In this document: in pieces, positions 22,951-58,999 of the stretch
Layout: every line of letters begins with the position of its first letter
How positions within the stretch are numbered: position 1 is the first letter of the stretch
Source of the DNA: Chloroflexota bacterium
GTDB taxonomy: Bacteria > Chloroflexota > Dehalococcoidia > Dehalococcoidales > JACPPQ01
Reading direction: 5' to 3'
Length of the DNA stretch: 64,000 nt
Assembly (NCBI GenBank): GCA_016190925.1
Contig: JACPPQ010000109.1
Location: 1,614-65,613 of the forward strand
The notes under the pieces: generated by a model
Database searches by the model: none
Told to the model about the DNA's origin: nothing
The model's input: the letters and a program-made list of their open reading frames with translations, nothing else
Translations under genes and position numbers: made by a program

Positions 22951-22991
22951 TGGGCAGACTATTAAACCACTAAAAGAGGAGGCCTAGTAAA

Positions 22992-23669: not shown

Positions 23670-23719
23670 CAAATGAGGCTGGCAGTAACCGGTCGGAAGC
23701 CCTGAAGGAGAAATGAGAA

Positions 23720-25677: not shown

Positions 25678-25678
25678 T

Positions 25679-30913: not shown

Positions 30914-30938
30914 CCGTCAAAATAAAGAAAGGAGAGAA

Positions 30939-33286: not shown

Positions 33287-33306
33287 GTTCCATTACCTTT
33301 CGCACT

Positions 33307-33484: not shown

Positions 33485-33815
33485 AACAGTTGTTGGTTAG
33501 AACTATTCACTTATAGTCAACAACAGGGGATTTCTCCCCGTCAGGTATCAAACGTTCTAAAAATAGCATACCTGGATAAGAAATATCAAATTTTACTGTT
33601 ATTGCAGTTTCAATTGCTCCAAATCGAAATCATGGTCGAAGTAGTTAAGAAAATGGTGATACTATATAGCATTTCCTTCTTTTACACGATAGAACTATAA
33701 GAGGACTTAATCGTTTAAGAATCATCGAGGTGAGATTTATTCAAAAATTTAACAATAAATGCTCGTAATTGGTCAATAATACTACAAAAAATGTGAAAAA
33801 CAATCATATTTTATA

Positions 33816-33845
33816 TTGACATGCCTTAAAACGCCATGCTATAAT
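33816..33845 (+). promoter_or_regulatory. Near-consensus sigma-70-type promoter for the 33876 operon
   Basis: TTGACA at 33816..33821 is followed by an 18-nt spacer and TATAAT at 33840..33845. It lies 30 nt upstream of the ATG at 33876, in an AT-rich stretch. Confidence 0.6.
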
Positions 33846-33875
33846 GAGCTACCTCTAAATGAATTGAGCTTGTGA

Positions 33876-35471
33876 ATGGAAAAAATATTTCAGACTGACT
33901 CAGCAATAGAGGTGAAACCTCTCTATACTCCCGAAGACATGGTAGAAGCGGGCTTTGACCATAGTCGCGACCTGGGCTCTCCGGGGAGATATCCTTTCAC
34001 TCGTGGGAAGGATTCTACCGGTTACAGGAAGAATCCCTGGATAATGTACCAGTATGCTGGATTTGGCAGTGCCGAAGAAACTAACAAGCGCTATCACTTT
34101 CTCCTCGACCACGGCGAGACAGGTCTCTCTGTAGCCATTGACCTCCCCACACAGATTGGGTATGACTCGGACAATCCCCTGGCATCGGGTGAAGTCGGGA
34201 AAGTCGGTGTTCCCATAAGCTCATTGCAGGATGCTGAAGTCCTTTTCAAAGGTATTCCGCTCGATAGACCGCGCCAGATAAGTGCTACTTTCAACTCCAA
34301 TGCGCCCATCTGGCTGGCAATGATGATTGTGCTTGCTGAAAAGCAGGGGATATCTCCTCAAAAGATAGGGGTCCGGATTCAGAACGACATTCTGAAAGAA
34401 TACATCGCCAGGGGCACTTACATTTTCCCTTCAGCCCCTTCTGTCAGTATGGCTACGGACGTCATCGCCTACTGCGCGGAACACCATCCCAACTGGTTTC
34501 CGTTGACTGCCTGCGGCTATCACATCCGGGAGGCCGGAGCTAACGCAGCGCAGGAGATTGCTTTTACCCTGGCCAACGCTATTGCCTATATCGATGACAC
34601 TGTCCGCAAGGGGGTTAAACCCGAGAAGTTCATTTCCAAAATTCCCGTTTTCTTCTCCTGTGGAATGGATTTTTTCGAGGAGATAGCCAAATTCAGGACC
34701 ATGCGCCGATTGTGGTCGCGGACCATGAAAGAACGCTATCATATTGATGACCCCAATTTGCTGAGCCTTAACCTGGTTGTGTTCACTGCCGGAAGCGCCC
34801 TCACCGCTCAACAACCGATGAACAACATCGTGCGGGTGGCAGTCCAGACCCTCGCCAGTGCTATCGGCGGATGCCAGAACCTGCATACCTGCTCAATGGA
34901 TGAGGCCTATTGTACTCCTACCGAAGAAGCGGTCAAGCTGGCGTTGCGCACCCAGCAGATAATCGCCCATGAAACAGGGATAGTCAGGACTATAGACCCC
35001 TTGGGCGGCTCATATTTTATAGAATCTCTGAGCAACAAGCTTGAAGAAATTGCGAAAAACTACCTGCGGGAAATTGATGAAACTGGTGGGGCGGTTAAGG
35101 CCACTGAAAGCGGCTATTTTCAGCGGCAAATTTCCAAATCAGCATACGAATTAAATCGACAGATTGAAGAGAAGGAACGTATCGTGGTCGGTGTTAATGA
35201 GTACGTGGACGATACAGGACTGCCTATCGAGATACTCAAAGTCGACCCTGGTTTGGAAAGAAAGCAGATAGACAGTGTCCGGGCGCTGAAAAAAGAGCGA
35301 GATAATGTCAAGGTGAAGCAAGCTCTGAGAGAGCTGAAACGGGTGGCAGAGATTCGGGAGAACATAGTTCCGCCGTGCATTGAAGCTGTCAGAGCCTATG
35401 CTACGGTAGGTGAAATCTGCGATGTTCTCAGGGAAGTCTACGGTGAGTATACCGGAGCGAGTCACTTTTAG
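33876..35471 (+). CDS. Methylmalonyl-CoA-mutase-family catalytic (large) subunit
   Basis: This 531-aa ORF contains YPFTRG...GYRKNPWIMYQYAGFGSAEETN and IQNDILKEYIARGTYIFP, both typical of acyl-CoA mutases. It is the TIM-barrel part only, with no B12-binding domain. Confidence 0.85.
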   Translation: MEKIFQTDSAIEVKPLYTPEDMVEAGFDHSRDLGSPGRYPFTRGKDSTGYRKNPWIMYQYAGFGSAEETNKRYHFLLDHGETGLSVAIDLPTQIGYDSDNPLASGEVGKVGVPISSLQDAEVLFKGIPLDRPRQISATFNSNAPIWLAMMIVLAEKQGISPQKIGVRIQNDILKEYIARGTYIFPSAPSVSMATDVIAYCAEHHPNWFPLTACGYHIREAGANAAQEIAFTLANAIAYIDDTVRKGVKPEKFISKIPVFFSCGMDFFEEIAKFRTMRRLWSRTMKERYHIDDPNLLSLNLVVFTAGSALTAQQPMNNIVRVAVQTLASAIGGCQNLHTCSMDEAYCTPTEEAVKLALRTQQIIAHETGIVRTIDPLGGSYFIESLSNKLEEIAKNYLREIDETGGAVKATESGYFQRQISKSAYELNRQIEEKERIVVGVNEYVDDTGLPIEILKVDPGLERKQIDSVRALKKERDNVKVKQALRELKRVAEIRENIVPPCIEAVRAYATVGEICDVLREVYGEYTGASHF

Positions 35472-35480
35472 GTTAAGCAT

Positions 35481-36308
35481 ATGGTTACAAAGCCAATCAG
35501 GGTCTTGATTGCCAAAGTAGGGCTGGATGGGCACGACCGTGGAGCCAAAATCATAGCCAAGGCATTGGCGGACACAGGTATGGAGGTTATTTACACTGGA
35601 ATACGCCAGACACCGGAGCAGGTGGTAAGCACGGCGATTCAGGAAGACGTGGACATTATCGGCCTGAGCAGCCTCTCCGGGGGGCATGAGGCCCTTTTCC
35701 CCAGAGTGGTCGAGCTCCTGAAGGCAAGGGGGAGCAATATCAGAGTAATCGGTGGCGGCATTATTCCTCCCGAAGACGCTTCGAAGCTGAAAAAACAGGG
35801 TATCGCCGAGATTTTCGGGCCGGGCACTCCTACCAAGGAAATTGTGCGCTTTATTAAAGGCGCTTGCCAGGAACCGGTTCGAGACGAGGAGAGTAAAATG
35901 CTCAAGCAAATTGACCATATCGGCATAGCCGTTCGTGATTTAGAGAAGTCTCTGGATAAGTATGCGGAGTTGTATGGGGCAAAGGCCACCCACACTGAGG
36001 TCATGGAGAGCCTGTCAATCAGTATTGCGTTTATACCGGTTGGTGAGGTACTGCTGGAGCTGCTTCAACCTCTTGCTCCGGGCAAAGGACGCATCGGTGA
36101 GTTTCTTGAAAAATACGGCGAGGGATTTCACCACATTGCCTACCGCGTGGATAACCTTGACCGGGTGCTGGCAAAGATGAAAGAAAATGGAATTAAATTG
36201 AGAGATGATAAGCCTCGCCCCGGCGCGGATAACACACGGATTGCATTCATAAGCCCTGAAGAGACCGGCAATGTGCTCACTGAACTGGTAGAAAGTAAGA
36301 AACTATGA
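35481..36308 (+). CDS. Fusion protein: B12-binding domain of acyl-CoA mutase + methylmalonyl-CoA epimerase (VOC fold)
   Basis: This is a 275-aa ORF. Residues 1-130 contain [20 protein letters not shown] (the DxHxxG cobalamin motif). Residues ~150-275 contain [15 protein letters not shown]...[13 protein letters not shown], which is epimerase/glyoxalase-like. Confidence 0.8.
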
Positions 36309-37870
36309 ACATACGGCAGCTCATAGAAGATAGAGTAGCTCGCAATCCGGCAAAGGTCTACCTCTATTTTGAAGACCAGCAGGTTACCTATGCCGATTTC
36401 AATGCGCAGATTAACAGAGTGGCGAACAGCCTGTGGAACGCGGGCATTCGCAAGGGCGACCGCTTTGCCATCATGTTGCCCAACTGCCCTGAGTTTCTGT
36501 ATGTCTGGTTCGGACTGAATAAGATTGGCGCTCTTGAAGTACCCATCAATAACAGCCTGAAGGGCGAGGAGGTCAAGTATATCCTGAAACACTCCGAGGC
36601 CAAAGGCATCGTAATTCATTCGGATTACCTGGCCCTGCTGGAAGGTATACGAGCGGAACTCCCGCAGTTGAAGCATGTGGTTGTATTTGGAAAAACTGCT
36701 GGGCTAGTCGGGGTAGTTCCCTATGAGTCATGGTTGAATTCCTCGTCCTCGGAGCCGCCGGTAGTGGAAATTGCAGAAGACGACCCCGCCGGTATCATCT
36801 ATACATCAGGGACCACCGGACTGCCAAAGGGTGTGCTTCTCTCTCACCGTGGCTGGGTGATGACGGGGGAATCCTATGCCTTTACAGTCGGTATCAAGGC
36901 CGATGACCGGGTTATGACACCCAACCCCCTCTTTCACGCCAATGCGCAATGTTACTCCACTATGGGAAGCCTGGCAGCCGGAGCAAGTCTCATCGTGATT
37001 AAGCGCTTCAGCCAGTCGGAGATACTGGAGCAGACCCGTCGGTATGGAGCTACTGTGCTGGTACTGGTGCAAGCGGTAACACCCTGGGTCTGGAGCCGGC
37101 CTGTTAAGCCTGATGATAAGGATAATCCGGTGAGGACGGTAGTTGCTGGGAACTGGCCTCCGGACATTTACAAAAAATTCGAGGAACGTTTCGGAGTAAA
37201 AAACCAGACTATCTACAGCCAGACCGAAGCCACGATGGCTATCATGGGACCCCGGGAGGGTACTCAACCGCGGAAGGCGGGGGGCATCGGGGTTCCTATG
37301 GAGCATCCCGACCCCTCGGTCAAAAACGAAGTGAAGATAGCCGACGAAAAGGGAGAAGAAGTCCCGTCCGGGCAGACAGGGGAGATATTAATCAAAAACC
37401 CGGCAGTGATGCTCGAATATTATAAAGACCCTGAAAAAACGGCTGAGACTAAACGGAATGGCTGGATTTACACCGGCGACACCGGTTACCGCGACGAAAC
37501 GGGCTACATTTTCTTTGTCGGAAGAAAAAAGCAACTCATTCGCCGGAGGGGTGAGCTTATATCTCCGGTGGAAATCGAAGAGGTGATTAATAAACATCCC
37601 AAAGTACAGGAATCAGCGGTTATTGGGATTCCTTCCGGGCTGGGAGTAGGAGAGGAAGAGATAAAGGTTTACGTTATGGCAAAGCCGGGCGAAACGGTGA
37701 CTCCCGAGGAGATTTGCAGTTGGTGCGGCGAAAAGCTGGCCGCGTTTAAGGTGCCCAAATATATTGAGTTTCGCACTGAGTTTCCACGGAGCTCTATCGG
37801 CAGGATTCAGAAAGAAGCACTCAAAGCGGAGAAGAAAGACCCACGAGAGGGCTGTTATGAGCGTAAGTAA
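36305..37870 (+). CDS. AMP-forming acyl-CoA synthetase/ligase
   Basis: This 521-aa ORF contains the AMP-binding motif [14 protein letters not shown] and the late motifs [21 protein letters not shown]. It overlaps the previous gene by 4 nt. Confidence 0.9.
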
Positions 37871-39224
37871 GACTTTGGCGGAAACGCAAAAACTGGTAAT
37901 AGAAGCGTACAAGCAAAAGACTGGCAAGTCCAGAGAACTGCACAAACGAGCTTGCGAGAGCCTCCAGGCGGGCGTATCGGCCAGCACCAGGTTTTATCCG
38001 CCATATCCCATATACATGACCCACGCAAAAGGCAGCAAGACCTATGACGTCGATGGCAACGAATATATAGATTGTTTTCTCTGTGCCGGACCTTTGATTC
38101 TGGGACACAACCGCCCGGAGGTTGTGGAAGCCATCAAGCGGGAAATCGACCGCGGCCTGCTTTTTTCAAATCCTGAGATGGTTATTGAATGCGCTGAACT
38201 GCTTAGGGAACTGGTCCCCTGTGCAGAGAAGATAAGACTTTGCAATACGGGCACCGAGGCAATACTCGCTGCCGTAAGAGCGGTCCGGGCCTTTACTGGC
38301 AAGGACAAGATTATCAAATTCTACGGCCATTACCACGGGCTGGAAGACCAGTTCCTGGTAGGCACCACAACTATAACCAACGCTCCCACCTCCGGGGGCA
38401 TCCCGAAGTCACATGTAGCGAATACCGTCCTGCTGAGATATGGCGATATCGAAGCAATAAAGCGAAAGTTTGACGAAGAGAATGATATTGCCGCTGTGAT
38501 TCTGGACCCTCAGATGAGCTACGAAGGTATCTGGCCTGCGAGCGTCGATTACCTGCGGGAACTGAGACGTCTAACTAAAGAACGGGGAATCGTCCTGATA
38601 TTCGACGAGGTAATAACCGGTTTCAGACTGGCCGCAGGAGGAGCGCAGGAATATTTCGGCATTATCCCCGATTTAGCCACTTTTGCCAAGGGCATGGCCG
38701 CTGGAGAAAAACTGGGGGCGGTAGTTGGCAGAGAGGATATCATGGACACCTTTTCCCCCACGGGATTCGTTCCCCCTTCAGGGGTAAAAGCGAGGGCTAT
38801 ACACGGAGGGACTTTTGCGGACTGCACGGCGGCCGTAGCCGCAGGGATAGCTTCTTTGAAGGTCTATAAACAATTGAAAAAAACGGGAGAATACCAGAAG
38901 CTCTTTCAGTTAACCGAAAAATTGAAAGCAGGCATAGAAGAGGCTTTCAAACAAAGGGGAGTACCCTGTCATGTAAACCAACTTGGCCCTTCAATCAAAA
39001 TTTTCATCACCGATTTGGAACCAGCCACCTTCGAGACTTATTGGAAGCTCGATAAAACTGCCATCTCGTTATTCTACCTGAGCATGATTCCTGAAGGTGT
39101 CTGGTTAGCCAATCCGAGCATGCGCTCGGTGTTCCTGTCCTTTGCTCACACCGAGCAAGATGTGGAGCAAATAGTTGCCGCGGTTAATACCGTTCTGGAT
39201 AAATACAGATTTGAACCTAGCTAA
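37857..39224 (+). CDS. Class-III PLP aminotransferase / glutamate-1-semialdehyde aminomutase-like
   Basis: The track ORF starts at 37764, inside the ligase gene. The ATG at 37857 gives [13 protein letters not shown]... Motifs IDCFLCAGPLILGHNRPEV and ATFAKGMAAGEKLGAV (PLP lysine region) are present. Confidence 0.8.
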   Translation: MSVSKTLAETQKLVIEAYKQKTGKSRELHKRACESLQAGVSASTRFYPPYPIYMTHAKGSKTYDVDGNEYIDCFLCAGPLILGHNRPEVVEAIKREIDRGLLFSNPEMVIECAELLRELVPCAEKIRLCNTGTEAILAAVRAVRAFTGKDKIIKFYGHYHGLEDQFLVGTTTITNAPTSGGIPKSHVANTVLLRYGDIEAIKRKFDEENDIAAVILDPQMSYEGIWPASVDYLRELRRLTKERGIVLIFDEVITGFRLAAGGAQEYFGIIPDLATFAKGMAAGEKLGAVVGREDIMDTFSPTGFVPPSGVKARAIHGGTFADCTAAVAAGIASLKVYKQLKKTGEYQKLFQLTEKLKAGIEEAFKQRGVPCHVNQLGPSIKIFITDLEPATFETYWKLDKTAISLFYLSMIPEGVWLANPSMRSVFLSFAHTEQDVEQIVAAVNTVLDKYRFEPS

Positions 39225-39256
39225 TTGGTTGCCTGAACACACAAAGAGAGGTGACT

Positions 39257-40267
39257 ATGAAAGTCATACAGTATGGTGTGGGTGACCTGGGTCAAACGGC
39301 AATTCGCCTGATGGCGAAGAAAGGGTACGAGGTAGTAGCCGCCATCGGCCGGAAGCGGTTTCTTAATGAAGACATCGGTGACATATCCGGCCTCGGCAGA
39401 AAGCTGGGCGTAAAAGTCACCGGCGATGCTGAAAGTGTGCTTGGGAAGGTAGAAGCCGATGTGGTCTGTCATATGACGGTAACGGATTTTGAAGAGGTCT
39501 ACCGGGAGATAATGCCCTGCGTGGAAGCCGGGCTAAACGTGGTTTCCATATCAGAGGAATTGAGCTATCCCTGGGACACTCATACCAGACTGGCCAGGGA
39601 GATGGACAAAAAGGCGAAATCGCGCCGTGTGACTGTGGTTGGAACGGGCATGAGTCCTGGCTGGGAGCATGACCTGCTCCCTTTAACTGTAGCCAGTGCT
39701 TGCGCCAGGGTCGATAGCATGAAAGTAATGAGAGTAAGTGACTGGAGCCACCAGGCCCGGAGCCGGGGCGATGTCCGGTTCGGGCGAAGCTTACCTGACT
39801 TCGAAGCCGGTGTCAGAAACGGGCAAATCCCGCTACATGCTGGTTTCCCGGAGGGATTGCATATGGTGGCTACTGCCCTGGGGTGGAAGCTGGACAGCAT
39901 TATAGACTGGTGGGAGCCGCTAGTATCGAAAAGCCTCCGCCAAGGCCCGGTGTATACCATTAAGGCTGGACAGACCTGCGGCTTCAAGCATGTTTCCATC
40001 GGATTAATCGACGGCGAAGCCAAACTGACTTTCGGGCTGACAGGAGTGGCAAACCCCGTCCCGGAAGAAGATGGAGAGATGGGCACATTTATCGAAATTG
40101 CAGGGGAACCGAACATAACCGTAAAAGAAGCAGGCTCGGACGTTCCCCTGGGGACAGTGGCGCGGGCGGTAAATTCCTTAAAGGCAGGGGTCGAGGCTCG
40201 GCCTGGTTTGCTTTCGGTGCTGGATTTACCGGTCGCGCCGCCGCTGCCGGACAGAAGTCATGTCTGA
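39257..40267 (+). CDS. DapB-fold NAD(P) dehydrogenase resembling 2,4-diaminopentanoate dehydrogenase / native amine dehydrogenases, paralog 1
   Basis: This ORF is 336 aa from the ATG at 39257 (GAGAGGTG ribosome-binding site). The N-terminal Rossmann segment reads KVIQYGVGDLGQ, followed by VVGTGMSPGW and ATALGWKLD. It is a paralog of 45311..46345. Confidence 0.6.
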   Translation: MKVIQYGVGDLGQTAIRLMAKKGYEVVAAIGRKRFLNEDIGDISGLGRKLGVKVTGDAESVLGKVEADVVCHMTVTDFEEVYREIMPCVEAGLNVVSISEELSYPWDTHTRLAREMDKKAKSRRVTVVGTGMSPGWEHDLLPLTVASACARVDSMKVMRVSDWSHQARSRGDVRFGRSLPDFEAGVRNGQIPLHAGFPEGLHMVATALGWKLDSIIDWWEPLVSKSLRQGPVYTIKAGQTCGFKHVSIGLIDGEAKLTFGLTGVANPVPEEDGEMGTFIEIAGEPNITVKEAGSDVPLGTVARAVNSLKAGVEARPGLLSVLDLPVAPPLPDRSHV

Positions 40268-40288
40268 GAAGCGAGTGGGGTTTGAAGT

Positions 40289-40561
40289 ATGGGGGTAAGA
40301 ATAAGGATACCGTATTCTCTGGTTCACTTGACCGGAGGCCAGTCGGCTGTGGAAGTGTTTGGTGACAATGTCGGAGAGTGCTTGGATTCTTTGCAGGCCA
40401 GGTTTCCGGAACTGAAAGCGACACTCTTCAATGAGGAAGGGAAGTTACGCGCGCTCTTCGATGTTTATGTGAATCACCAAAGCACTTATCCCGAGGGGTT
40501 GCTTCACCCGGTAAAAGGTGGTGATGAGCTTCTTCTCATCATGATAATCGGCGGTGGATAG
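40289..40561 (+). CDS. MoaD/ThiS-like ubiquitin-fold sulfur-carrier protein
   Basis: This 90-aa ORF ends in ...LLIMIIGGG, the C-terminal Gly-Gly typical of MoaD/ThiS. It sits inside the AOR-containing operon. Confidence 0.7.
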   Translation: MGVRIRIPYSLVHLTGGQSAVEVFGDNVGECLDSLQARFPELKATLFNEEGKLRALFDVYVNHQSTYPEGLLHPVKGGDELLLIMIIGGG

Positions 40562-40591
40562 CCTAATCCGATATGAATCGAGGAACCGTTT

Positions 40592-40900
40592 ATGGACAGA
40601 AGAATACAAAACGGGTTTGAGAGAGGCAAGAGTTTTGAAATAGAGGTGGATGGAACGAAGGTTAAAGCCTTCGAAGGTGAAACCATTGCTGCCGCTCTTC
40701 TTGCAGCGGGCAAGCGGACCACCTGCAAGAGTAACGCCAAAAAAGAAGCGAGGGGGCTCTATTGTGGCATGGGCGTCTGCATGGGATGCCGCATGATTGT
40801 CGATGGCAAGCCGAATACACTGGTATGCCAGACTCTGGCCACGCCGGATTGTAAGGTTAAAACACAGAATGCGCTTGAGAACTGGTGGGCTTCAAAATGA
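40592..40900 (+). CDS. Small [2Fe-2S] subunit (HcnA / opine-oxidase / proline-dehydrogenase gamma-like)
   Basis: This 102-aa ORF contains the Cys pattern CGMGVCMGCRMIVDGKPNTLVC. It is followed by HcnB-like and HcnC-like genes. Confidence 0.7.
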   Translation: MDRRIQNGFERGKSFEIEVDGTKVKAFEGETIAAALLAAGKRTTCKSNAKKEARGLYCGMGVCMGCRMIVDGKPNTLVCQTLATPDCKVKTQNALENWWASK

Positions 40901-42294: not shown

Positions 42295-42303
42295 CAGTGA
42301 GGA

Positions 42304-43461: not shown

Positions 43462-43476
43462 GGAGGTCGAATAGAA

Positions 43477-45288: not shown

Positions 45289-45310
45289 TAGTCAACCGAG
45301 GAGTGCAGAA

Positions 45311-46345
45311 ATGCAGAAAGCTAAAGTAATCCAGTGTGGTCTGGGAGCTATAGGTGTAGAGGTAAGCAAATTAATTCTGGAAAAGAAAGATATCGAGCTC
45401 GTGGCCGCAACCGATATCGCAAAACAACTGATAGACAAGGACCTGGGTCAGGTTCTGGGTCTGGAGCGCAAGCTCGGTATAAAAGTGAGGGATGATGCCG
45501 GGGAAGTGTTCAGGAAGACTGATGCCGATGTGGTAGTGGTTACAACCAGCAGCCATTTCGAGCGGATATTCGGCACCGTCAGGGAAGCGCTTTCGGCTGG
45601 CAAGAATGTAATCACCACCTGCGAAGATGCGTGCTTCCCGTGGACCAGAAATCCGGACTTGTCGCGCCAGATTGATGAATTAGCCAAAAGCAAGGGAGTT
45701 ACTTTCCTGGGCACCGGAATAAACCCGGGTTTTATGATGGACTACTTGCCCATAGCCCTCACCGGCATTATGAAAAGGGTGGACAAGGTTCGCATTCGCC
45801 GGGTGGCTAACATGGCTACCTGCGGCCTCACCGATTGGGAACTTTTCGGGTACGGAAAAAAGCTCGAGGCCTTTAACGAAGGGCTGGCTAAAGGGCAAAT
45901 CGGGGGGTTCATCGCCTTCAGGCAGATTATGGAGATGATAGCCCGGGCGCTTCAATGGGGAAAGATAGATTATGAGGAAGAAAAAGAAGGCTTGATTACC
46001 AGGTCCAGGCGGGTGGCCAAGGCCGGTGTGGTGGAGCCGGGCACCGTATACTCGGTCAAACAGACTGCGCGTGGCCTGAAGCAAGGCAAGGAAGTTATTG
46101 CCTTTGAGGAGTTTTTTGTCATCAATCCCAGCCTCGAAGAAGATGATTTGGAAGTTGGAAATTTCGCCACCATCGAGGGAGAGCCATCGGTAGTGGTCAA
46201 TGCCACCGGGCAGCAGGCTTCCCAGATGGCTGCCACGACCGCCGCTCATGTGGTGAACTCGATACCTGCCGTGATTGAGGGGCCGCCGGGATTGCTCACA
46301 GTATATGAGTTACCGCCATCACCTTGCTTGCCGGGGAAGGAATAA
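45311..46345 (+). CDS. DapB-fold dehydrogenase (2,4-diaminopentanoate dehydrogenase / amine dehydrogenase-like), paralog 2
   Basis: The track ORF starts at 45257, but the ATG at 45311 follows GAGGAG. The sequence contains KVIQCGLGAIGVEVSK, FLGTGINPGFMMDYLP and ARALQW. Confidence 0.6.
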   Translation: MQKAKVIQCGLGAIGVEVSKLILEKKDIELVAATDIAKQLIDKDLGQVLGLERKLGIKVRDDAGEVFRKTDADVVVVTTSSHFERIFGTVREALSAGKNVITTCEDACFPWTRNPDLSRQIDELAKSKGVTFLGTGINPGFMMDYLPIALTGIMKRVDKVRIRRVANMATCGLTDWELFGYGKKLEAFNEGLAKGQIGGFIAFRQIMEMIARALQWGKIDYEEEKEGLITRSRRVAKAGVVEPGTVYSVKQTARGLKQGKEVIAFEEFFVINPSLEEDDLEVGNFATIEGEPSVVVNATGQQASQMAATTAAHVVNSIPAVIEGPPGLLTVYELPPSPCLPGKE

Positions 46346-46347
46346 AC

Positions 46348-48228
46348 ATGTCTTTTGATGCGTGCGGATATACGGGAAAGCTATTGAGGGTCGACCTATC
46401 AAGCGGGAAAATTTCAGTCGAGCCGCTGAATATGGCCTGGGCCAGGCAATATATTGGCTGCCAGGGACTGGGCGTGAGATACCTGTTCGAAGAGCTGGCT
46501 CCCGGAATCGACCCTCTGGGACCGGAAAGTAAGATAGTCCTTCTCACAGGACCGCTTACAGGGACTATTGCCCCGTGCTCTCCTAAATACACGCTGATTT
46601 TTAAGTCGCCGCTGACCAATATACTCTACGATAGCACGTCGGGCGGGTATTTCGGTGCCGAGCTTAAATATGCCGGCTACGATGGCCTCATAATAGAAGG
46701 AAAATCGCCAAAACCGGTCTATCTTTTAATCAGAGACCAGAGGGTTGAGCTTCAGGATGCTGCCCGGATTTGGGGTAAAGATACCTTTACCGCCACTGAT
46801 ATGCTCAAACAGTGGTGGGGAGACGACCTGAGAGTTACGGTCATTGGCCTGGCGGGGGAAAACCAGGTCAGATTTGCCAGCGTTCTGACGGAATATGCTA
46901 AAGCCAACGGCAGGGCTGGTGGCGGGGCAGTCTTTGGCGCCAAGAACCTTAAGGCCATAGCGGTCAAAGGCTCCGGCTCGGTAAGTGTGGCCAATCCGGA
47001 GGCACTGGTTGAACTCTCACTGAAATTGATGGCGGAAACCCTGGTTGAAAACCCGGAGCAGCTGGTGTTCACCGGTTGGAAGGGTGGAGAAGGCACTATA
47101 AGCATAATGGACTGGGCTAATGATTATGGCTGCCTGCCCACCAGGAATTTCCAGGCTGGCAGCTTCGACAGAAAAAGCAAGATAGATGCCAGGGAAGTCA
47201 AGAAAATCACCAAGAAGGAGAAAGCCTGCTTCTCCTGTCCTATGGGTTGTGCGCATCAGGTTAAGATAGAGCAAGGCCAGCACAAGGGGACTGGAGTAGG
47301 TAGCTTCGAATACGAGAGCATAGCCATGCTTGGCTCGAACTGCGATATCAGTGACCTGGCTGTCGTTGCCAAACTGAACGAGCTATGCAATAAACATGGC
47401 ATGGATACTATCACCGCAGGAAACGTAATCGGCTGGGCAATGGACTGTTTTGAGAGAGGTCTCCTTACCGAGAAGGATACGAACGGTCTGCCCTTGCGCT
47501 TCGGCAACAATGAGGCCGCCATCGAGTTACTGGAAAAAATTGCTAGGAGAGAGGGAATCGGAGCCCTCCTGGCTGAGGGAGTAGCCAGGGCTTCAGCCAG
47601 AGTCGGGAAAGGCTCGGAAGAATTCGCCATGCATGTCAAAGGGCTGGAAATCCCCGCTTATGACCCCAGGGTAGCCATCGGAATGGGGCTTGCCTATGCC
47701 ACCGCTCCTCCGGGTGCGGCGCATACCCGCGCGTTCCCCATCAGCGGCGCCCTCTTTGGCGGATGGTGGGTTGGTGCCGACCCGGTCAAGCTGGACCCCA
47801 GAAAGCCGGAAAATTTTGCGCAGGTATGCATCCAGCAAAACCACTGGCAGGCTTACCGGTTCAGCACCGGCCACTGCGATTTCGGCCTGCTGGAGCCGGG
47901 ATGGAAACTCCCTGAACTGCTGGAAAACTGTACCGGGTGGCCGGAGATAAAGGACTGGAGAAAAATCGGCGAAAGGATTATCAACACCTACCGGCTATTC
48001 AGCATCAGGGAAGGAATCAGTCGGAAAGATGATACTCTACCTGCAGCATTCTTCAAGAAACCTCTTCCGGCTCCGGCGGAAGGCGCGGTCATCTCTCCGG
48101 AAGATTTCGAATTCATGTTGAACGAGTATTACGAACTCAGAGGCTGGGACCACGAGGGCAGGCCCACTCAGGAAAAGCTGAGAGAGCTTGGTATCCAAGA
48201 ACTTGGACTTAAGATTGGAGTTAGATAG
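46348..48228 (+). CDS. aor: Aldehyde:ferredoxin oxidoreductase family, paralog 2
   Basis: The track ORF starts at 46324. The ATG at 46348 follows GGGGAAGGA and lies 2 nt after the previous stop. The sequence contains YTGKLLRVDLSSGK and CFSCPMGC. Confidence 0.9.
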   Translation: MSFDACGYTGKLLRVDLSSGKISVEPLNMAWARQYIGCQGLGVRYLFEELAPGIDPLGPESKIVLLTGPLTGTIAPCSPKYTLIFKSPLTNILYDSTSGGYFGAELKYAGYDGLIIEGKSPKPVYLLIRDQRVELQDAARIWGKDTFTATDMLKQWWGDDLRVTVIGLAGENQVRFASVLTEYAKANGRAGGGAVFGAKNLKAIAVKGSGSVSVANPEALVELSLKLMAETLVENPEQLVFTGWKGGEGTISIMDWANDYGCLPTRNFQAGSFDRKSKIDAREVKKITKKEKACFSCPMGCAHQVKIEQGQHKGTGVGSFEYESIAMLGSNCDISDLAVVAKLNELCNKHGMDTITAGNVIGWAMDCFERGLLTEKDTNGLPLRFGNNEAAIELLEKIARREGIGALLAEGVARASARVGKGSEEFAMHVKGLEIPAYDPRVAIGMGLAYATAPPGAAHTRAFPISGALFGGWWVGADPVKLDPRKPENFAQVCIQQNHWQAYRFSTGHCDFGLLEPGWKLPELLENCTGWPEIKDWRKIGERIINTYRLFSIREGISRKDDTLPAAFFKKPLPAPAEGAVISPEDFEFMLNEYYELRGWDHEGRPTQEKLRELGIQELGLKIGVR

Positions 48229-48231
48229 AAC

Positions 48232-48690
48232 GTGGCTAAAGTGTTTTCCATAGATGCGAAAAAGTGTACGGGGTGCAAGCTTTGTGAGCTGATTTGCTCC
48301 TTTCACCACAACGGCGTCTTCAAGCCTTCGGTTTCACGGATAAGAGTCAAGCTGAACACCAGGGAAGGCACCGCTCAACCGTTGATATGCCGCCAGTGTA
48401 AAAAATGCACGTGTATAGAGGTATGCAGGCCAGGGGCAATTAGCCAGGATGAGAAAACCGGAGTGATAACCATCGACCATGCTAAATGCACCGGGTGCAA
48501 AGAATGTATATTTACCTGTCCTTTCCAGGCCGTTGGTTTTGAGGAGGAACCGAAAGGAGTTGCAATAGTTTGCGACCACTGTGGAGGCAAGCCAGAATGT
48601 GTAAAAGTCTGCTTTCCCGGAGCACTAAAATATATTGACAAAGAAACATCCTGGGCACCTACCAGGCAAGATACAACGAGTCGAGCTTAA
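48232..48690 (+). CDS. Polyferredoxin with four [4Fe-4S]-type Cys motifs (AorA-like electron-transfer subunit)
   Basis: This 152-aa ORF starts with GTG 3 nt after AOR-2. Its Cys motifs are CTGCKLCELIC, CRQCKKCTCIEVC, CTGCKECIFTC and CDHCGGKPECVKVC. Confidence 0.8.
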   Translation: MAKVFSIDAKKCTGCKLCELICSFHHNGVFKPSVSRIRVKLNTREGTAQPLICRQCKKCTCIEVCRPGAISQDEKTGVITIDHAKCTGCKECIFTCPFQAVGFEEEPKGVAIVCDHCGGKPECVKVCFPGALKYIDKETSWAPTRQDTTSRA

Positions 48691-48720
48691 CGTAAATCAT
48701 AGTAAAATAGGAGGGGTCAT

Positions 48721-49506
48721 ATGACAGTCAGAATTCTTGGTATTTCGGGAAGTCCTCGGCATGGGAACACTGAAATCGCTCTCAAAGAGGCCTTGGCTGG
48801 CGCCGCCGAAGTAAAGGACGTAGAAACGGAGCTGTATAGCATTGTCGGTAAAACGCTAAACCCGTGTACCGGGTGCTTTAAGTGCGGGACTGAAGAAGCT
48901 ACTCCGGAAATTCCCTGTCCGCAGTGGGGAGATGATGACATCACCAAACTGGTCAGAAGAATGAGGGACGATTTTGATGGGTTCGTGATTGGCAACCCGG
49001 TGTATATCGGTACCATCTCTGCCCAGATTAAAATGATTTTCGACAGGGCAATCATGATGACCGAGGGCGGCAGGCTGGGTCCCGTAACTCTAAGAAACAA
49101 GGTCTGCGGTGTTGTGATTAGCTCCTGGGACAGGAACGGAGGACATGATTTAGCCGCAATCGATACCTGGAGATGGGCTATTCTCCACGACATGATAGTG
49201 GTCGGTGTAGGACCGGAGAGAATAGATTGTAACAACTATTGGGCAGGATGTGTGGTTCAGGCCTATACTCCCAATCATCCCGACGGTGGCAAAGGAATCT
49301 GGTGGGCCAAGGCTAATTCGTTAGAGGAGCGGACCGCGGTCAAGTTTGATACACTGGGGCTCGCTCAATGCCGGAACACCGGCCGGCGAGTGGCAGAGTT
49401 GGCCAAAGTAATCAAGGCTGGCTTCGACAGTCTTAGCCGGGAGGATACCTACTGGCCGCGCGGCGGATGCGGAGGTTTTGAAGGGACAGCCTGGGGCAGC
49501 AAATAG
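48721..49506 (+). CDS. Isf-like iron-sulfur flavoprotein, paralog 3
   Basis: This 261-aa ORF begins RILGISGSPRHGNTE. It carries CTGCFKC-x10-C and GNPVYIGTISAQIKMIFDR, plus the shared C-terminal block GRRVAELAKVIKAGF. Confidence 0.65.
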   Translation: MTVRILGISGSPRHGNTEIALKEALAGAAEVKDVETELYSIVGKTLNPCTGCFKCGTEEATPEIPCPQWGDDDITKLVRRMRDDFDGFVIGNPVYIGTISAQIKMIFDRAIMMTEGGRLGPVTLRNKVCGVVISSWDRNGGHDLAAIDTWRWAILHDMIVVGVGPERIDCNNYWAGCVVQAYTPNHPDGGKGIWWAKANSLEERTAVKFDTLGLAQCRNTGRRVAELAKVIKAGFDSLSREDTYWPRGGCGGFEGTAWGSK

Positions 49507-49584
49507 GATACGAATATAAACTTGATAATTAATACAAACGACTTACTAACCGTCTCATATTAAGATAGAATCATGGAAATAGCT

Positions 49585-49672
49585 TCTCCCTTTCGCAAAG
49601 GGAGATTGTGAGGGATTTTCCACGGGTAGGTTGAGGGATTTCAAGTTCCCTACATCCTCTATTCGGAAAGGG
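49585..49672. repeat. Hairpin module TCTCCCTTT-cgc-AAAGGGAGA followed by a duplicated GAGGGATTT motif
   Basis: The 9-bp stem spans 49585..49605. TGTGAGGGATTTTC and TTGAGGGATTTC follow it. The same module type (CCCCCTTT-cgc-AAAGGGGG + GGGGATT x2) occurs at 61035..61068. Confidence 0.75.
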
Positions 49673-49745
49673 GTTACGTCCAGATTATTATGAAACGATT
49701 AGTAAGTGGAATCATTAACTATGTTGCATCATCGAGGAGCTAGCA

Positions 49746-50210
49746 GTGTTGCAGATTGATAAAGAAAAATGTACAGGGTGCAGATTATGTGAGATGATGT
49801 GCTCCTTTCGCCACGAAGGGGAATGCAGCACTGCAAAATCACGTATCAAAATCCTGAAAGATGAAGAATTCGGGAACTGCCTGGTGCTGGTATGCATGAA
49901 CTGTGAAGATGCTCCCTGTGTAGCCAGTTGTCCGACGGAAGCATTCAAAAAAGATGACAATAGCGGAATAGTAGCGCTTGATGAGTCTCTCTGTATCGGG
50001 TGCGAGGCCTGCATTGGCGTCTGCCCGATGGAAACTATAGTTCTGGATAAAGATAAAAACACCGTTTTCAAGTGCGACCTGTGCGGCGGCGACCCTGAAT
50101 GTGTGAAGTGGTGTACCAGGGGAGCGATAAAGGAAAACGACATCGGCTGGCAAGCCAGGCAAGCCTACATCGAGCAGGCAAATAAAATGCGAAGTCCAAA
50201 CAGCGCTTAA
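49746..50210 (+). CDS. Polyferredoxin (AorA-like), paralog 2
   Basis: This 154-aa ORF starts with GTG. Its Cys motifs are CTGCRLCEMMC, CMNCEDAPCVASC, CIGCEACIGVC and CDLCGGDPECVKWC. It is collinear with 48232..48690. Confidence 0.8.
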   Translation: MLQIDKEKCTGCRLCEMMCSFRHEGECSTAKSRIKILKDEEFGNCLVLVCMNCEDAPCVASCPTEAFKKDDNSGIVALDESLCIGCEACIGVCPMETIVLDKDKNTVFKCDLCGGDPECVKWCTRGAIKENDIGWQARQAYIEQANKMRSPNSA

Positions 50211-50235
50211 AACCTCGATAGTTAAGGGAGCAAAA

Positions 50236-52116
50236 ATGCACGGGTGGGCGGGGAAACGACTCAAGGTATACCTGACCGAAGGAAAGCTGGTCGAGGAGGA
50301 GCTAACCGAGGAATTCAGACAGGAGTACCTGGGCGGAAGAGGGTTTAATGTCAGAACCGTATTTGACGAGATAGCTCCGGGAATTGACCCCTTAAGCCCC
50401 GAAAACGTCTTGACAGTATCGACAGGTCCCCTGGCCGGCACTGCGGCACCGGGCATGACCAGGTGGACCGTAACCGCCAAATCTCCATTGACCGGAATAA
50501 TCGGCGACGGCAACGGGGGCAGCGACTTTGCCGCCGAACTCAAATTCGCGGGCTACGACCAGATTGTTGTATACGGGCGGGCTGCCTCGCCGGTCTACTT
50601 GTTTATCAAAGACAGTCGAGTCGAGCTGAGAGACGCATCCAGGCTATGGGGCAAGACGACTTGGGATACCCACAAGTTAATCGTCAAAGAGCTGCATGAC
50701 AGCCAAATCCGCGACTTGATTATCGGGCCGGCAGGGGAAAACCTGGTCCGTTTTGCTAAGATTATCACCAACATGACCAGGGCAGGTGGCAAGTGCGGGA
50801 TGGGGGCGGTCATGGGGTCGAAGAATCTCAAAGCAATAGTAGTGCGCGGGTCTGGCTCGGTCAAAATAGCCAGCCCCGATGCTTTTTATCAAGCCGCCCA
50901 GCAGGCCAACGCTAAGTTGCTGGCTTCGCGTTTTCATCGCCAGGTCCTGGGAGAAGAAGGCACTCCCTATCTTATAAAGTTTCTAACCTCGGAGCGTTCG
51001 TTAACTACAAGAAACTCCCAGGCAGGCTATTTCGAAGGTTGGGAGAAGTTAACTTCGGAGGCATTTGAATCCAGCTACGCAGTTAAACATGGAGCTTGTT
51101 TCTCCTGTCCCATCGCTTGCAGTCATTATTACCGCGTAAAGGATGGGCCATACGCTACTCACGGCGGCTCCAACCAGTTTGGCACGCTCTACCCCTTTAC
51201 TTCCAGGTGCGGAAGTGACAATCTGGCTGCCTCGTTGCACCTGACTACCCTTTGTGACCAGATGGGGATAGATACACATTCCTGTGGGGCGACGATATCA
51301 TTTGCCATGGAGGCCTGGGAAAAGGGATTGATTACTTTTAAGGATACCGATGGGCTTGACCTTTCCTGGGGGAATGCCGACTCAATGATAAAATTGGTAC
51401 AGAAGATAGCATACCGCCAGGGTTTTGGCGATATCCTGGCTGAGGGTTCACTGAGGGCCTCCGCGCAGATTCCTGGTTCAGCTTCCTGCCTGACCGTTGT
51501 CAAGGGACTGGAATGCAGTTCGTACTACCCCGGCGAAGGTGAGCACAAGATAATCGGGCTTGCCTTTGCGACATCGCCGATAGGTGGAAGCCACCATCGG
51601 GGAGGATTCATGGGACTGCACAGCCACCCCAAAGTGAGACAGGCCCTGGGCGAAGAGCTCGCTCGCCACCTTCGTGACCACACCACCTACAAAGGACAGG
51701 GCGTGCTCCTCGTCGTAGAAAACGACTTTGTGGCCGCTCTTAACTCAATGGAAACCTGCCTTCTGCTTTGCCAGTATGGCCTCACCGCGGATGACCTGGC
51801 CGGGCTGGTGTCGGCAGCTACCGGCTTTGACATCGACGGTGATGCGCTGTTGAAGATAGGCGAAAGAGTTTTCAATGTAGAGAGGGCGTTTAATGTGCGT
51901 GAGGGAATCCGGCGTAAAGACGATACCCTGCCTGAGCGTTTCTTTGTTGAAAAGGAAACGCCTTATGGAAAGACCGGCATAAACAAGGCGAAATTCCAGG
52001 AAATGCTGGATGAGTTTTACAGCTTCCGAGGCTGGGATAAAGAAGGTGTCCCAACTAGAAAAAAGCTTGAGGAACTCAATCTCGGATATATCGCGGAGCA
52101 GATTCCGGCTTCCTGA
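50236..52116 (+). CDS. aor: Aldehyde:ferredoxin oxidoreductase family, paralog 3
   Basis: This 626-aa ORF begins MHGWAGKRLKVYLTEGK. It contains CFSCPIAC and GLAFATSPIGGSHHRGG. Confidence 0.9.
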   Translation: MHGWAGKRLKVYLTEGKLVEEELTEEFRQEYLGGRGFNVRTVFDEIAPGIDPLSPENVLTVSTGPLAGTAAPGMTRWTVTAKSPLTGIIGDGNGGSDFAAELKFAGYDQIVVYGRAASPVYLFIKDSRVELRDASRLWGKTTWDTHKLIVKELHDSQIRDLIIGPAGENLVRFAKIITNMTRAGGKCGMGAVMGSKNLKAIVVRGSGSVKIASPDAFYQAAQQANAKLLASRFHRQVLGEEGTPYLIKFLTSERSLTTRNSQAGYFEGWEKLTSEAFESSYAVKHGACFSCPIACSHYYRVKDGPYATHGGSNQFGTLYPFTSRCGSDNLAASLHLTTLCDQMGIDTHSCGATISFAMEAWEKGLITFKDTDGLDLSWGNADSMIKLVQKIAYRQGFGDILAEGSLRASAQIPGSASCLTVVKGLECSSYYPGEGEHKIIGLAFATSPIGGSHHRGGFMGLHSHPKVRQALGEELARHLRDHTTYKGQGVLLVVENDFVAALNSMETCLLLCQYGLTADDLAGLVSAATGFDIDGDALLKIGERVFNVERAFNVREGIRRKDDTLPERFFVEKETPYGKTGINKAKFQEMLDEFYSFRGWDKEGVPTRKKLEELNLGYIAEQIPAS

Positions 52117-52169
52117 AGACCCGGCTTATATGGCGCACTTGAACCGAAGGCTTAATCCCATAGCCTTGA

Positions 52170-58970: not shown

Positions 58971-58999
58971 TAATTTAACTCCCACAAGTTATTTAGCCT

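Follow-up and report, generated by a model that had tools for sequence, protein, structure and literature searches.

Conserved linkage of native amine dehydrogenase-like proteins, tungsten-type aldehyde oxidoreductases and a methylmalonyl-CoA mutase module in a Chloroflexota gene cluster

A 64,000-nucleotide stretch of contig JACPPQ010000109.1 from the genome assembly of a Chloroflexota bacterium (GCA_016190925.1; hereafter the window) contains a block of 16 genes on the + strand which, according to the list of open reading frames (ORFs) and a check of the junctions, fills positions 33876–52116. The genes encode an acyl-CoA mutase with an epimerase, an acyl-CoA ligase, a class III aminotransferase (AT3), two DAP_DH-like amine dehydrogenases (DAPDH1 and DAPDH2), a three-subunit flavoenzyme, three aldehyde:ferredoxin oxidoreductases (AOR1 to AOR3), two polyferredoxins, a flavin mononucleotide (FMN) protein and a MoaD-like protein. 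Within the first 14 genes (33876–49506), neighbours either overlap or lie at most 32 nt apart. In order along the block, the junctions measure 9, −4, −14, 32, 21, 30, −4 (ATGA), 9, 15, 22, −22, 3, 30, 239 and 25 nt when the start codons of the longest ORFs are used, with AOR2 read from TTG 46324. The ATG at 46348 is likelier to be the start of AOR2 than this TTG; it is preceded by the Shine-Dalgarno sequence GGAAGG, corresponds to residue 3 of the solved AORs and converts the overlap of 22 nt into a gap of 2 nt. GAGG/GGAGG-like sites were found upstream of most start codons in the block. An original prediction, made from the sequence alone, had described this layout of co-directional genes with a 239-nt hairpin spacer; its coordinates and junction values were reproduced exactly, and each of its gene-family calls agreed with Pfam, NCBIfam and solved-structure searches.

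Families were assigned by Pfam and NCBIfam profile searches and refined by searches against solved structures (PDB). The first gene (33876–35471, +) encodes the large, catalytic subunit of an acyl-CoA mutase of the methylmalonyl-CoA type (PF01642, 645 bits; TIGR00641, 644.6 bits against a cutoff of 303.8). Tyr89 and Arg207 of the methylmalonyl-CoA mutase (MCM) of P. shermanii contact the substrate carboxylate. Their equivalents lie in the motifs RQ-Y-AGF and QNDILKEYIA-R of the window protein, which also has the YH pair (His244 equivalent), whereas 2-hydroxyisobutyryl-CoA mutase (HCM) has Ile and Gln at the two positions in the same alignment. Because of this Tyr/Arg carboxylate signature the subunit is, as judged from its residues, a true methylmalonyl-CoA mutase type, despite HCM being its best PDB match. 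An assignment as isobutyryl-CoA or 2-hydroxyisobutyryl-CoA mutase was rejected, as the residues are neither Phe/Gln nor Ile/Gln. The second gene (35481–36308, +; 275 aa) encodes a B12-binding small mutase subunit (residues 6–128; TIGR00640, 167 bits; DGHDRG as the DxHxxG motif) fused to a predicted methylmalonyl-CoA epimerase (residues 143–271; TIGR03081, 112.1 bits along the whole model, just short of the cutoff of 114.95). A mutase with a fused epimerase had been predicted; the fusion is present, but the partner is the small B12-binding subunit and not the catalytic one. The AMP-forming acyl-CoA ligase (36305–37870, +; PF00501 and PF13193) reaches no equivalog cutoff, its best models being PRK06187 (426 against 476) and CaiC (395 against 651), and its NCBIfam and PDB neighbours were uninformative as to specificity. 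AT3 (37857–39224, +; PF00202) affiliates with the HemL-like branch of the class III aminotransferases. It scores below the HemL cutoffs (NF000818, 374.7 against 398; TIGR00713, 369.8 against 527.3) and its best solved relatives are glutamate-1-semialdehyde aminomutases, followed by D-phenylglycine and beta-transaminases. AT3 thus does not qualify as a glutamate-1-semialdehyde 2,1-aminomutase, and its setting is catabolic rather than one of tetrapyrrole synthesis.

DAPDH1 (39257–40267, +; PF19328, 117.6 bits; NF040740, 229.9 bits against a cutoff of 400) and DAPDH2 (45311–46345, +; PF19328, 132.7 bits; NF040740, 287 bits against 400) are paralogues with 35% sequence identity. Both consist of a DapB_N Rossmann domain and the PF19328 domain DAP_DH_C and carry a Glu aligned to E102 of AmDH4 (position P3), which places them in the native amine dehydrogenase (AmDH) superfamily. 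The suspected tie of these DapB-fold proteins to amine oxidation is borne out by their affiliation with the 2,4-diaminopentanoate/native AmDH family and by the retained catalytic Glu. The block had also been credited with four unrelated ways of turning C–N into C=O; the enzymes are there, but since the DAP_DH-like pair is paralogous they represent three types. The nearest solved relative is AmDH4 of Petrotoga mobilis (6G1M, 212 bits with DAPDH2), and DAPDH1 keeps the equivalents of its Glu102, Arg161 and His197. In the pocket positions P1–P21, taken in AmDH4 numbering as defined by a survey of native AmDHs (PMC11164908, Supplementary Data 5), DAPDH2 reads SCEGINFMRANCDFFIAEFMT and DAPDH1 reads TSEGMSWERSDQR-HAGLG-T. 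Both copies keep the catalytic Glu at P3 and an Arg at P9, and neither carries the pocket signature of group G1 or of group G2 (Ord). At P10, P12, P14, P15, P18 and P19, DAPDH2 has A, C, F, F, E and F and DAPDH1 has S, Q, a gap, H, L and G, while the G2 signature comprises N at P10, F/Y at P12, Q at P14, H at P15, H at P18 and Q at P19 (PMC11164908).

About a dozen distinct loci carry DAPDH2 orthologues of 49–70% identity; among the species representatives of the genome collection, none exceeded 49%. In the orthologues P0007, P0011 and P0012, P9 is Gly and the Arg stands at P18 instead, whereas other members of the clade combine Arg at P9 with Glu, Val or Tyr at P18. The relocation looks compensatory and suggests that an anionic substrate group would still be bound. 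One member of the DAPDH2 clade, A0A661QLY4, whose pocket signature equals that of P0007 except at P20, had entered the survey for the purpose of NetSyn analysis; the protein proved insoluble, and 2-amino-4-oxopentanoate and cyclohexanone were the only ketones offered to it (PMC11164908). As a source of functional evidence for the clade it was consequently set aside. In 10 of the 46 loci with enough flanking sequence (L034, L036, L039, L041, L053, L058, L061, L062, L063 and L074), the gene of an AmDH with the G1 signature (Arg at both P9 and P12) is followed after 36–70 nt by one for a HemL-like class III aminotransferase; in the published survey, no informative genomic context had emerged for G1 (PMC11164908).

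Downstream of DAPDH1 and a small MoaD-like gene, three genes encode an enzyme of HcnABC-type architecture, in which a Fer2_4 protein, a Pyr_redox_2/BFD protein and a DAO-family protein are encoded together. The small 2Fe-2S subunit (HcnA-like; 40592–40900, +; PF13510 Fer2_4) overlaps the next gene by ATGA. The latter (40897–42294, +) was identified by Pfam as a Pyr_redox_2 flavoprotein with a BFD/SO_alpha_A3 domain, similar to HcnB and the proline dehydrogenase alpha subunit; its best solved relative is 1Y56_A (75 bits), followed by sarcosine oxidase alpha. The third subunit (42304–43461, +) is a DAO-family flavoprotein (PF01266, 222 bits) similar to HcnC, the proline dehydrogenase beta subunit and SoxB, and is predicted to be the catalytic, amine-oxidizing one. 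It is most similar to 1Y56_B (140 bits), then to dimethylglycine dehydrogenase and SoxB. Both large subunits therefore have the L-proline dehydrogenase complex of P. horikoshii (1Y56) as best solved relative and, as the original prediction had supposed for the Hcn-like proteins, are tied to amine oxidation. No curated enzyme-specific cutoff is reached by the DAO-family subunit (soxB, 103.5 against 529; D-proline dehydrogenase, 42.5 against 600), and its orthologues in the loci L018, L102, L022 and L023 are 45–54% identical.

AOR1 (43477–45288, +), AOR2 (46348–48228, +; longest ORF from TTG 46324) and AOR3 (50236–52116, +) belong to the AOR family, all three having the domains AFOR_N (PF02730) and AFOR_C (PF01314) and the motif CxxCxxxC. 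A tungsten cofactor and aldehyde oxidation are predicted for them. AOR2 has 9MQX_D and 1AOR as best solved relatives, and AOR3 is about 40% identical to both other copies. AOR2 is followed by an AorA/WorS-type polyferredoxin (48232–48690, +; Fer4_11; 17 Cys in four motifs), the best solved relatives of which are 9MQX_E (108 bits), 8C0Z_C (104 bits) and the small subunit of WOR5; the entry 9MQX is presumably WorABCSL of Acetomicrobium mobile. A paralogue of this protein (38% identity), polyferredoxin 2 (49746–50210, +; Fer4_11 and related models; 18 Cys in four motifs), precedes AOR3. Between polyferredoxin 1 and the spacer lies the gene of a flavodoxin-like FMN protein with a Cys-rich loop (48721–49506, +; 261 aa; PF03358, FMN_red). 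By sequence it gave only weak WrbA matches; the structure model (pLDDT 94) shows a flavodoxin-like fold closest to WrbA and PnpB. Iron-sulfur flavoproteins (Isf) combine such a fold with a compact motif of four Cys; the window protein reads CxxCxxC-x10-C, of which only three residues, Cys49, Cys55 and Cys66, are invariant in 45 homologues. The fold and the Cys-rich loop make the proposed label of Isf-like flavoprotein reasonable, but sequence searches did not confirm an Isf identity and the best folds are those of WrbA and PnpB. A paralogue of the FMN protein (37%) is encoded elsewhere in the window, in the run 15743–24469. Finally, the MoaD/ThiS-like beta-grasp protein (40289–40561, +; PF02597; TIGR01687, 34 bits, below cutoff) ends in ...IIGGG; the AOR operon of A. 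aromaticum is reported to include such MoaD-like genes, namely aorD and aorE (PMC6365974).

With DAPDH2 as bait, more than 100 loci (numbered L001 onwards) were fetched and searched with all proteins of the window. Two cassettes recur, with orthologues of 50–73% identity, in other Chloroflexi, in Thermoleophilia, in a Hodarchaeota archaeon and in marine and sediment metagenomes. Cassette (a) comprises the genes of the MCM, the epimerase, the ligase and the HemL-like aminotransferase. L106 keeps it in the gene order of the window (MCM 58%, epimerase 54%, ligase 65%, AT3 63%, B12 subunit 53%), with an AOR1 orthologue (60%) upstream. The Hodarchaeota metagenome-assembled genome (MAG) has DAPDH2 (53%), AT3 (55%), MCM (49%), epimerase (57%) and ligase (52%) together with thiolase/DUF35 genes and MeaB (L021); a MeaB-type chaperone was not found among the scanned window genes. 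In L104, DAPDH2 (59%) stands beside the ligase (64%), epimerase (51%) and MCM (60%) and adjoins a molybdenum hydroxylase; the aminotransferase there is only 35% identical to AT3 and is not a clear orthologue. L106, L021 and L104 encode the B12 subunit and the epimerase separately, and in L106 the B12 gene comes after that of the aminotransferase. Ligase orthologues thus adjoin MCM and epimerase in L021, L104 and L106 at 52–65% identity.

Cassette (b) comprises the flavoenzyme, AOR1, DAPDH2, AOR2, polyferredoxin and FMN protein. It occurs in the same order, followed by more AORs, in another Chloroflexi MAG (L018/L019) and in L102/L103, which include a TARA scaffold (AOR1 59–61%, DAPDH2 52–54%, AOR2 70–73%, polyferredoxin 55–57%, FMN protein 70–72%). 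The flavoenzyme of L018 and L102 is distributed over five genes and has a 4Fe-4S protein in addition. The core of AOR2, polyferredoxin, FMN protein and DAPDH2 is also found in a Thermoleophilia MAG (L001) and in L020, and L028 has the FMN protein with DAPDH2. Over all loci, orthologues of AOR1 are 58–61% identical (L018, L102, L103, L106), those of AOR2 58–73% (L001, L018, L020, L102/103) and those of the FMN protein 61–72% (L001, L018, L020, L028, L102); in at least five lineages the conserved place of the latter is behind the polyferredoxin. For AOR3 and its ferredoxin, the related loci offer no close orthologues but only matches of 31–33% identity. The two cassettes are joined in L020, and DAPDH2 orthologues accompany cassette (a) in L020, L021 and L104 and cassette (b) in L001, L018 and L102. 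AT3 orthologues (55–63% identical in L018, L021, L106, L107 and L108) are embedded among the flavoenzyme genes in L018; in L107 (60%) they stand amid BCKDH, ACAD, SDR, glyoxalase and AOR genes, a valine-type context, and in L108 (61%) they adjoin HyuA/B, which recalls pairs of lactamase and omega-transaminase. Uptake systems (TRAP, SSF, LivJ-type, amino-acid permease) and catabolic partners (thiolase, 4-hydroxybutyryl-CoA dehydratase AbfD, BCKDH) are carried by orthologue loci. Conservation of the neighbourhood, a point raised with the original prediction, was hence found as linkage of amine dehydrogenase, AOR, ligase and mutase across phyla. Because orthologues of 50–73% identity keep the same order across phyla and in one archaeon, the block is not a chance juxtaposition; judged by this linkage, it is a genuine, conserved catabolic gene cluster made of known kinds of enzymes in an uncharacterized combination, and DAPDH2 is the hub that joins its amine, aldehyde and mutase parts.

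Co-transcription of the block is plausible, tight packing and a single strong promoter-like site supporting one unit. This sigma-70-type site (33816–33845, +; TTGACA-18-TATAAT with TG extension), a match to consensus only, is the sole 12/12 match within 32400–52300 and lies 31 nt 5′ of ATG 33876. Terminator-like sites within the block are not enriched (19 against 20.4 in shuffled sequences), and internal terminators or promoters dividing the block were rejected, none being above background. The structured, AT-rich spacer of 239 nt (49507–49745, +) between the genes of the FMN protein and polyferredoxin 2 sets AOR3 and its ferredoxin apart from the first 14 genes. It holds the hairpin CTCCCTTTCGCAAAGGGAG and folds somewhat better than its shuffled versions (−62.8 kcal/mol, z = −2.6); no promoter-like match was found on its + strand. 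A riboswitch or other known RNA in the spacers was rejected after an Rfam scan of 32400–52300 returned no family. The divergent regulator foreseen for the block is encoded at 32822–33286 (−), 589 nt from the first gene, and shows the HTH_AsnC-type and AsnC_trans_reg domains (Pfam) of the Lrp/AsnC family. An Lrp gene also precedes the set of AOR2, ferredoxin, FMN protein and DAPDH2 in L001, with 30% identity to that of the window, and the divergent Lrp protein may control the block. Besides these signals, an identical GC-rich palindrome, GCCCGCCTCTGGCGGGC, occurs at three intergenic positions of the window (3513–3529, 5082–5098 and 33455–33471; 0.31 expected) and looks like a REP-like element; its third copy falls in the intergenic region between regulator and operon.

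From gene families, active-site signatures and conserved linkage we infer a composite catabolic operon, including all of its substrates, its direction of flux, its electron path and its regulation by Lrp, through which small aliphatic amines or non-alpha amino acids would be converted to succinyl-CoA without oxygen. The chances of this general scheme appear even, and any single substrate assignment within it is tentative at most. C–N would first become C=O through AT3, the two NAD(P)-dependent DAP_DH-family dehydrogenases and the HcnABC/proline dehydrogenase-like flavoenzyme, which would act on secondary or N-alkylated/N-methylated amines and yield primary amines or amino-aldehydes. The tungsten-type AORs would then oxidize the semialdehydes irreversibly to carboxylates, the electrons of AOR2 passing to the AorA/WorS-type polyferredoxin and the conserved FMN protein. 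For the ferredoxin-linked route from amine to acyl-CoA of the original prediction, the families and their linkage hold, but the conserved partner of AOR2 is this pair of polyferredoxin and WrbA-fold FMN protein rather than a free ferredoxin. NAD(P)-linked oxidative deamination is thermodynamically uphill and the acid/aldehyde couple is very negative; aldehyde oxidation by the AOR would pull the unfavourable amine dehydrogenase step, which may explain the fixed pairing of DAPDH2 and AOR2. In the last steps, the AMP-forming ligase would activate the resulting dicarboxylate, and the epimerase and B12 mutase would turn methylmalonyl-CoA into succinyl-CoA.

A C4 skeleton is the most parsimonious for the route. 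Since the ligase is co-conserved with mutase and epimerase, it most likely makes their substrate. Succinate enters central metabolism without a mutase, and a succinate-to-propionate fermentation could hardly afford an AMP-forming ligase; the fixed position of mutase and epimerase beside the ligase thus points to a branched, methylmalonyl skeleton. For the 5′ cassette we accordingly favour a conversion of 3-aminoisobutyrate to methylmalonate semialdehyde (by AT3 or the dehydrogenases), methylmalonate (AOR), methylmalonyl-CoA (ligase), its (R)-epimer (epimerase) and succinyl-CoA (mutase), which would be a non-decarboxylating variant of the end pathway of valine and thymine. A valine-type origin of methylmalonate semialdehyde would fit the context of the AT3 orthologue in L107. 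In the other half, formed by flavoenzyme, AOR1, DAPDH2 and AOR2, intermediates of the 4-aminobutyrate (GABA) or 4-aminobutanal type are likely; gene order and two related loci with AbfD (L015 and L105) argue for GABA and succinate semialdehyde there. Put together, the DAPDH2-type clade would be a physiological omega/beta-amino-acid dehydrogenase coupled to a three-part tungsten AOR (AOR, polyferredoxin and Cys-loop FMN protein) and, with the AMP-forming ligase, epimerase and B12 mutase, would take C4 amino acids (3-aminoisobutyrate and/or GABA) to succinyl-CoA by an undescribed route without decarboxylation, common to Chloroflexi, Actinomycetota and Asgard archaea. This joint reading is offered tentatively, as a possibility that is more probably wrong than right.

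Several observations weigh against 3-aminoisobutyrate and the methylmalonate branch, and some of them favour the strongest rival, a route from GABA or polyamines towards propionate. In this rival, pyrrolidine, putrescine or N-methylated GABA would yield 4-aminobutanal (flavoenzyme, AT3), GABA (AOR1), succinate semialdehyde (DAPDH2), succinate (AOR2), succinyl-CoA (ligase) and, through mutase and epimerase, (R)-/(S)-methylmalonyl-CoA, with propionyl-CoA formed by a decarboxylase or transcarboxylase encoded elsewhere. The gene order from flavoenzyme over AOR1 and DAPDH2 to AOR2 equals the order of this pathway. DAPDH2 orthologues (55% and 45%) lie in the AbfD clusters L015 and L105, which points to GABA rather than 3-aminoisobutyrate. 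L015 (JGI Ga0315544_1000136, 290–13658) encodes an SDR, two CoA-transferases, a genuine AbfD (315 bits to 1U8V, with the cluster ligands conserved), ECH, 3HCDH, thiolase/DUF35 and two DAP_DH-like dehydrogenases, and no aminotransferase was found among its called genes. These genes make up a complete GABA/4-hydroxybutyrate fermentation set, in which an amine dehydrogenase may replace the couple of transaminase and glutamate dehydrogenase; L105 is similar. The closest characterized relative of DAPDH2, AmDH4, likewise works on gamma-amino acids, oxidizing 4-aminopentanoate and 2,4-diaminopentanoate (PMC11164908). On the side of the 5′ cassette, AT3 is HemL-like and not a known 3-aminoisobutyrate or beta-alanine transaminase, and the ligase is not specifically similar to MatB or ACSF3: the malonyl-CoA synthase model PRK07514 gives 272.9 against 558, the best models are generic, and MatB structures rank mid-list (179 bits) in the PDB search. 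A link to pyrimidine breakdown was dropped, as the dihydropyrimidinase-like gene at 30828–32471 remains below cutoff (218.7 against 393) and is part of the upstream unit, and the neighbouring M20 hydrolase (57678–58985), which stands beside a TfrA/SdhA-like FAD protein, is ArgE/DapE-like and not a ureidopropionase. Corrinoid methyltransferase systems, unexplained by the favoured model, are carried by several loci with DAPDH2 or AT3 orthologues: dimethylamine methyltransferases (MtbB) with pylSBCD (L028, 2300–11399), Pterin_bind proteins (L030, 4711–5577, a locus which also has an AorC-like Pyr_redox_2 protein, and L031, 2–805), an MttB-family protein (L023, 1550–2635) and a URO-D protein with a corrinoid protein (L107, 13327–16296). 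They hint at methylated amines as ultimate substrates; methyltransferase genes were not found among the scanned window genes. The propionate route itself is nonetheless unlikely in our view: none of the loci with the mutase cassette encodes a methylmalonyl-CoA decarboxylase, transcarboxylase or propionate CoA-transferase, an AMP-forming activation of succinate merely to decarboxylate it would be energetically poor, and succinate being already a central metabolite would leave the mutase superfluous.

The remaining rivals are less probable still. Independent modules on the same strand without a common substrate, namely a generic methylmalonyl-CoA cassette, a proline/sarcosine-type dehydrogenase and aldehyde-detoxifying AORs, would suit a window that is a dense catabolic island (five UbiD paralogues, at least three carboxylate transporters, hydantoinase-like genes), as well as the separate occurrence of the two cassettes in several genomes and the lack of conservation of AOR3 and its ferredoxin with the remainder. 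We consider such a juxtaposition improbable, since DAPDH2 orthologues bridge both cassettes across lineages (L020, L021 and L104 on one side, L001, L018 and L102 on the other), L106 has an AOR1 orthologue with its mutase cassette, AT3 lies amid flavoenzyme genes in L018, and the overlaps and junctions of at most 32 nt continue across the cassette boundary. Catabolism of proline, ornithine or betaines, with the flavoenzyme as L-proline or N-methylproline dehydrogenase, AT3 as an ornithine delta-aminotransferase-like enzyme and AOR1 oxidizing glutamate 5-semialdehyde to glutamate, which would proceed to succinyl-CoA, appears more doubtful again. The nearest relatives of both large flavoenzyme subunits are the P. 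horikoshii 1Y56 chains and the MttB/MtbB-type and corrinoid methyltransferase genes near orthologues fit betaines, but the scores against 1Y56 are modest (140 and 75 bits), no gene of the block takes glutamate or 2-oxoglutarate further, the second and third AOR and the DAP_DH-like enzymes are left unexplained, and the window genes that were scanned include no such methyltransferase. The least probable rival, to which we give very little weight, runs the route in reverse: reduced ferredoxin would drive the AORs from acid to aldehyde, followed by amination, so that amines or omega-amino acids serve as electron sink or in osmolyte or polyamine synthesis. Native AmDHs are known as reductive aminases with an equilibrium towards amination (PMC11164908), and AORs are reported to reduce non-activated acids with low-potential donors (PMC9295118). 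However, ligase, epimerase and mutase would have no role in that direction, the orthologue loci hold uptake systems and catabolic partners, and regulators of the Lrp, GntR and IclR types are typical of catabolic operons.

Around the block, the window looks like a catabolic island for organic acids or N-heterocycles. The five paralogues of the UbiD (de)carboxylase family lie at 5451–6917 (−), 12427–14037 (+), 20710–22146 (+), 59000–60439 (−) and 61411–62844 (+), two of them being 68% identical, and are accompanied by two full TRAP systems, an extra DctP, a TTT transporter and an MFS protein. An operon-like run at 15743–24469 encodes HyuA/HyuB-type proteins, the alpha subunit having caprolactamase alpha as best model (558 bits, below cutoff), together with an acetone-carboxylase-gamma-like protein, two isochorismatase-family hydrolases, UbiD and a BluB-like nitroreductase. 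At 24490–27088 (−) an archaeal-type thiolase (PRK06157, 519 against 403 bits) adjoins a fusion of an HMG-CoA-synthase-like protein with a DUF35/OB-fold domain; in L020 and L021, too, pairs of thiolase and DUF35 stand beside the mutase cassette. Between the two catabolic blocks (27420–29697) lie the genes of a MEDS-PAS histidine kinase and a LuxR-type response regulator, MEDS domains being linked to the sensing of methylotrophy or small hydrocarbon derivatives.

Native AmDHs have been heavily mined as biocatalysts, and their natural role is unknown outside the ornithine-fermentation group; beyond G2, the survey saw neither a conserved context nor a physiological role for them (PMC11164908). The locus and its relatives give one clade of these enzymes a reproducible context, and hence a short, testable list of substrates, which would be a first genomic clue to its natural role. 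The FMN protein, standing in place of AorC or BfuABC, is a possible third electron-exit module for multi-subunit tungsten AORs. If the scheme holds, the very exergonic oxidation of aldehydes would draw the unfavourable NAD(P)-linked oxidation of amines forward, and an anaerobic shortcut at methylmalonate semialdehyde would avoid the textbook decarboxylation and recarboxylation. The subsurface Chloroflexi, Thermoleophilia and Hodarchaeota concerned have not been cultured, and clusters of this kind offer one of the few ways to learn how they recycle nitrogenous small molecules. Literature searches yielded no description of this gene combination and no characterized pathway of such composition, in keeping with the original prediction, and nothing relevant on an AOR-linked succinate or methylmalonate semialdehyde route, on a GABA dehydrogenase or on this cluster in Chloroflexi.

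Among described systems, the Ord cluster offers a close parallel on the amine side. Ord, the 2,4-diaminopentanoate dehydrogenase of oxidative ornithine degradation, constitutes the G2 group, the sole native AmDH group with a known physiological context, and is encoded in the cluster orr-oraSE-ord-ortAB (PMC11164908). As in that cluster, an NAD(P)-dependent amine dehydrogenase of the DapB fold, with catalytic Glu and pocket Arg in common, is set among anaerobic catabolic genes for amino compounds, and its carbonyl product would be used by the next enzyme. In contrast to Ord, both copies of the block score below the NF040740 cutoff (230 and 287 against 400) and differ in the pocket at P10, P12 and P14–P19, and no ornithine aminomutase, OrtAB thiolase or racemase was found among the scanned window genes. 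Since the partner downstream is a tungsten AOR, the expected product is an aldehyde and not a ketone. The AORs with an adjacent four-cluster polyferredoxin and a MoaD-like gene resemble AorABC of Aromatoleum aromaticum (8C0Z) and WorABCSL of Acetomicrobium mobile. Unlike these, the block lacks the FAD subunit AorC and the bifurcating module BfuABC, and the WrbA-fold FMN protein takes that place. The flavoenzyme shares its three-part order A-B-C (small 2Fe-2S protein, Pyr_redox_2 with BFD, DAO-family catalytic subunit) with HcnABC, the L-proline dehydrogenase of Thermococcales (1Y56), the opine and D-hydroxyproline dehydrogenases and the heterotetrameric sarcosine oxidase; it has no folate-binding (GCV_T) domain, which distinguishes it from SoxA.

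The 5′ part, with its Tyr/Arg mutase, DxHxxG B12 subunit and epimerase, recalls the methylmalonyl-CoA pathway with a split archaeal-type MCM, an epimerase and MeaB, from which it differs by the fusion of the epimerase to the B12 subunit and by MeaB not being found in the window scan. It also recalls the end pathway of valine and thymine, in that the aminotransferase would interconvert an amino acid and a semialdehyde. In the canonical route, methylmalonate semialdehyde is decarboxylated to propionyl-CoA, which is then recarboxylated. The block, in contrast, has no CoA-acylating dehydrogenase or carboxylase, and AOR and AMP-forming ligase would retain the carboxyl group. A sequence from amine over succinate semialdehyde to a C4 acid, as predicted here for the 3′ half, is known from the GABA fermentation of Clostridium aminobutyricum, whose AbfD branch is held by L015 and L105, and from aerobic putrescine/GABA catabolism (GabT-GabD). 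Here, however, an amine dehydrogenase would stand in place of transaminase and glutamate dehydrogenase, and a tungsten AOR in place of the NAD(P)-dependent succinate semialdehyde dehydrogenase. The cluster would thus work like a hybrid of the ornithine/Ord paradigm, the tungsten enzymes AorAB and WorSL, the flavoenzymes of the HcnABC/proline dehydrogenase type and the methylmalonyl-CoA pathway.

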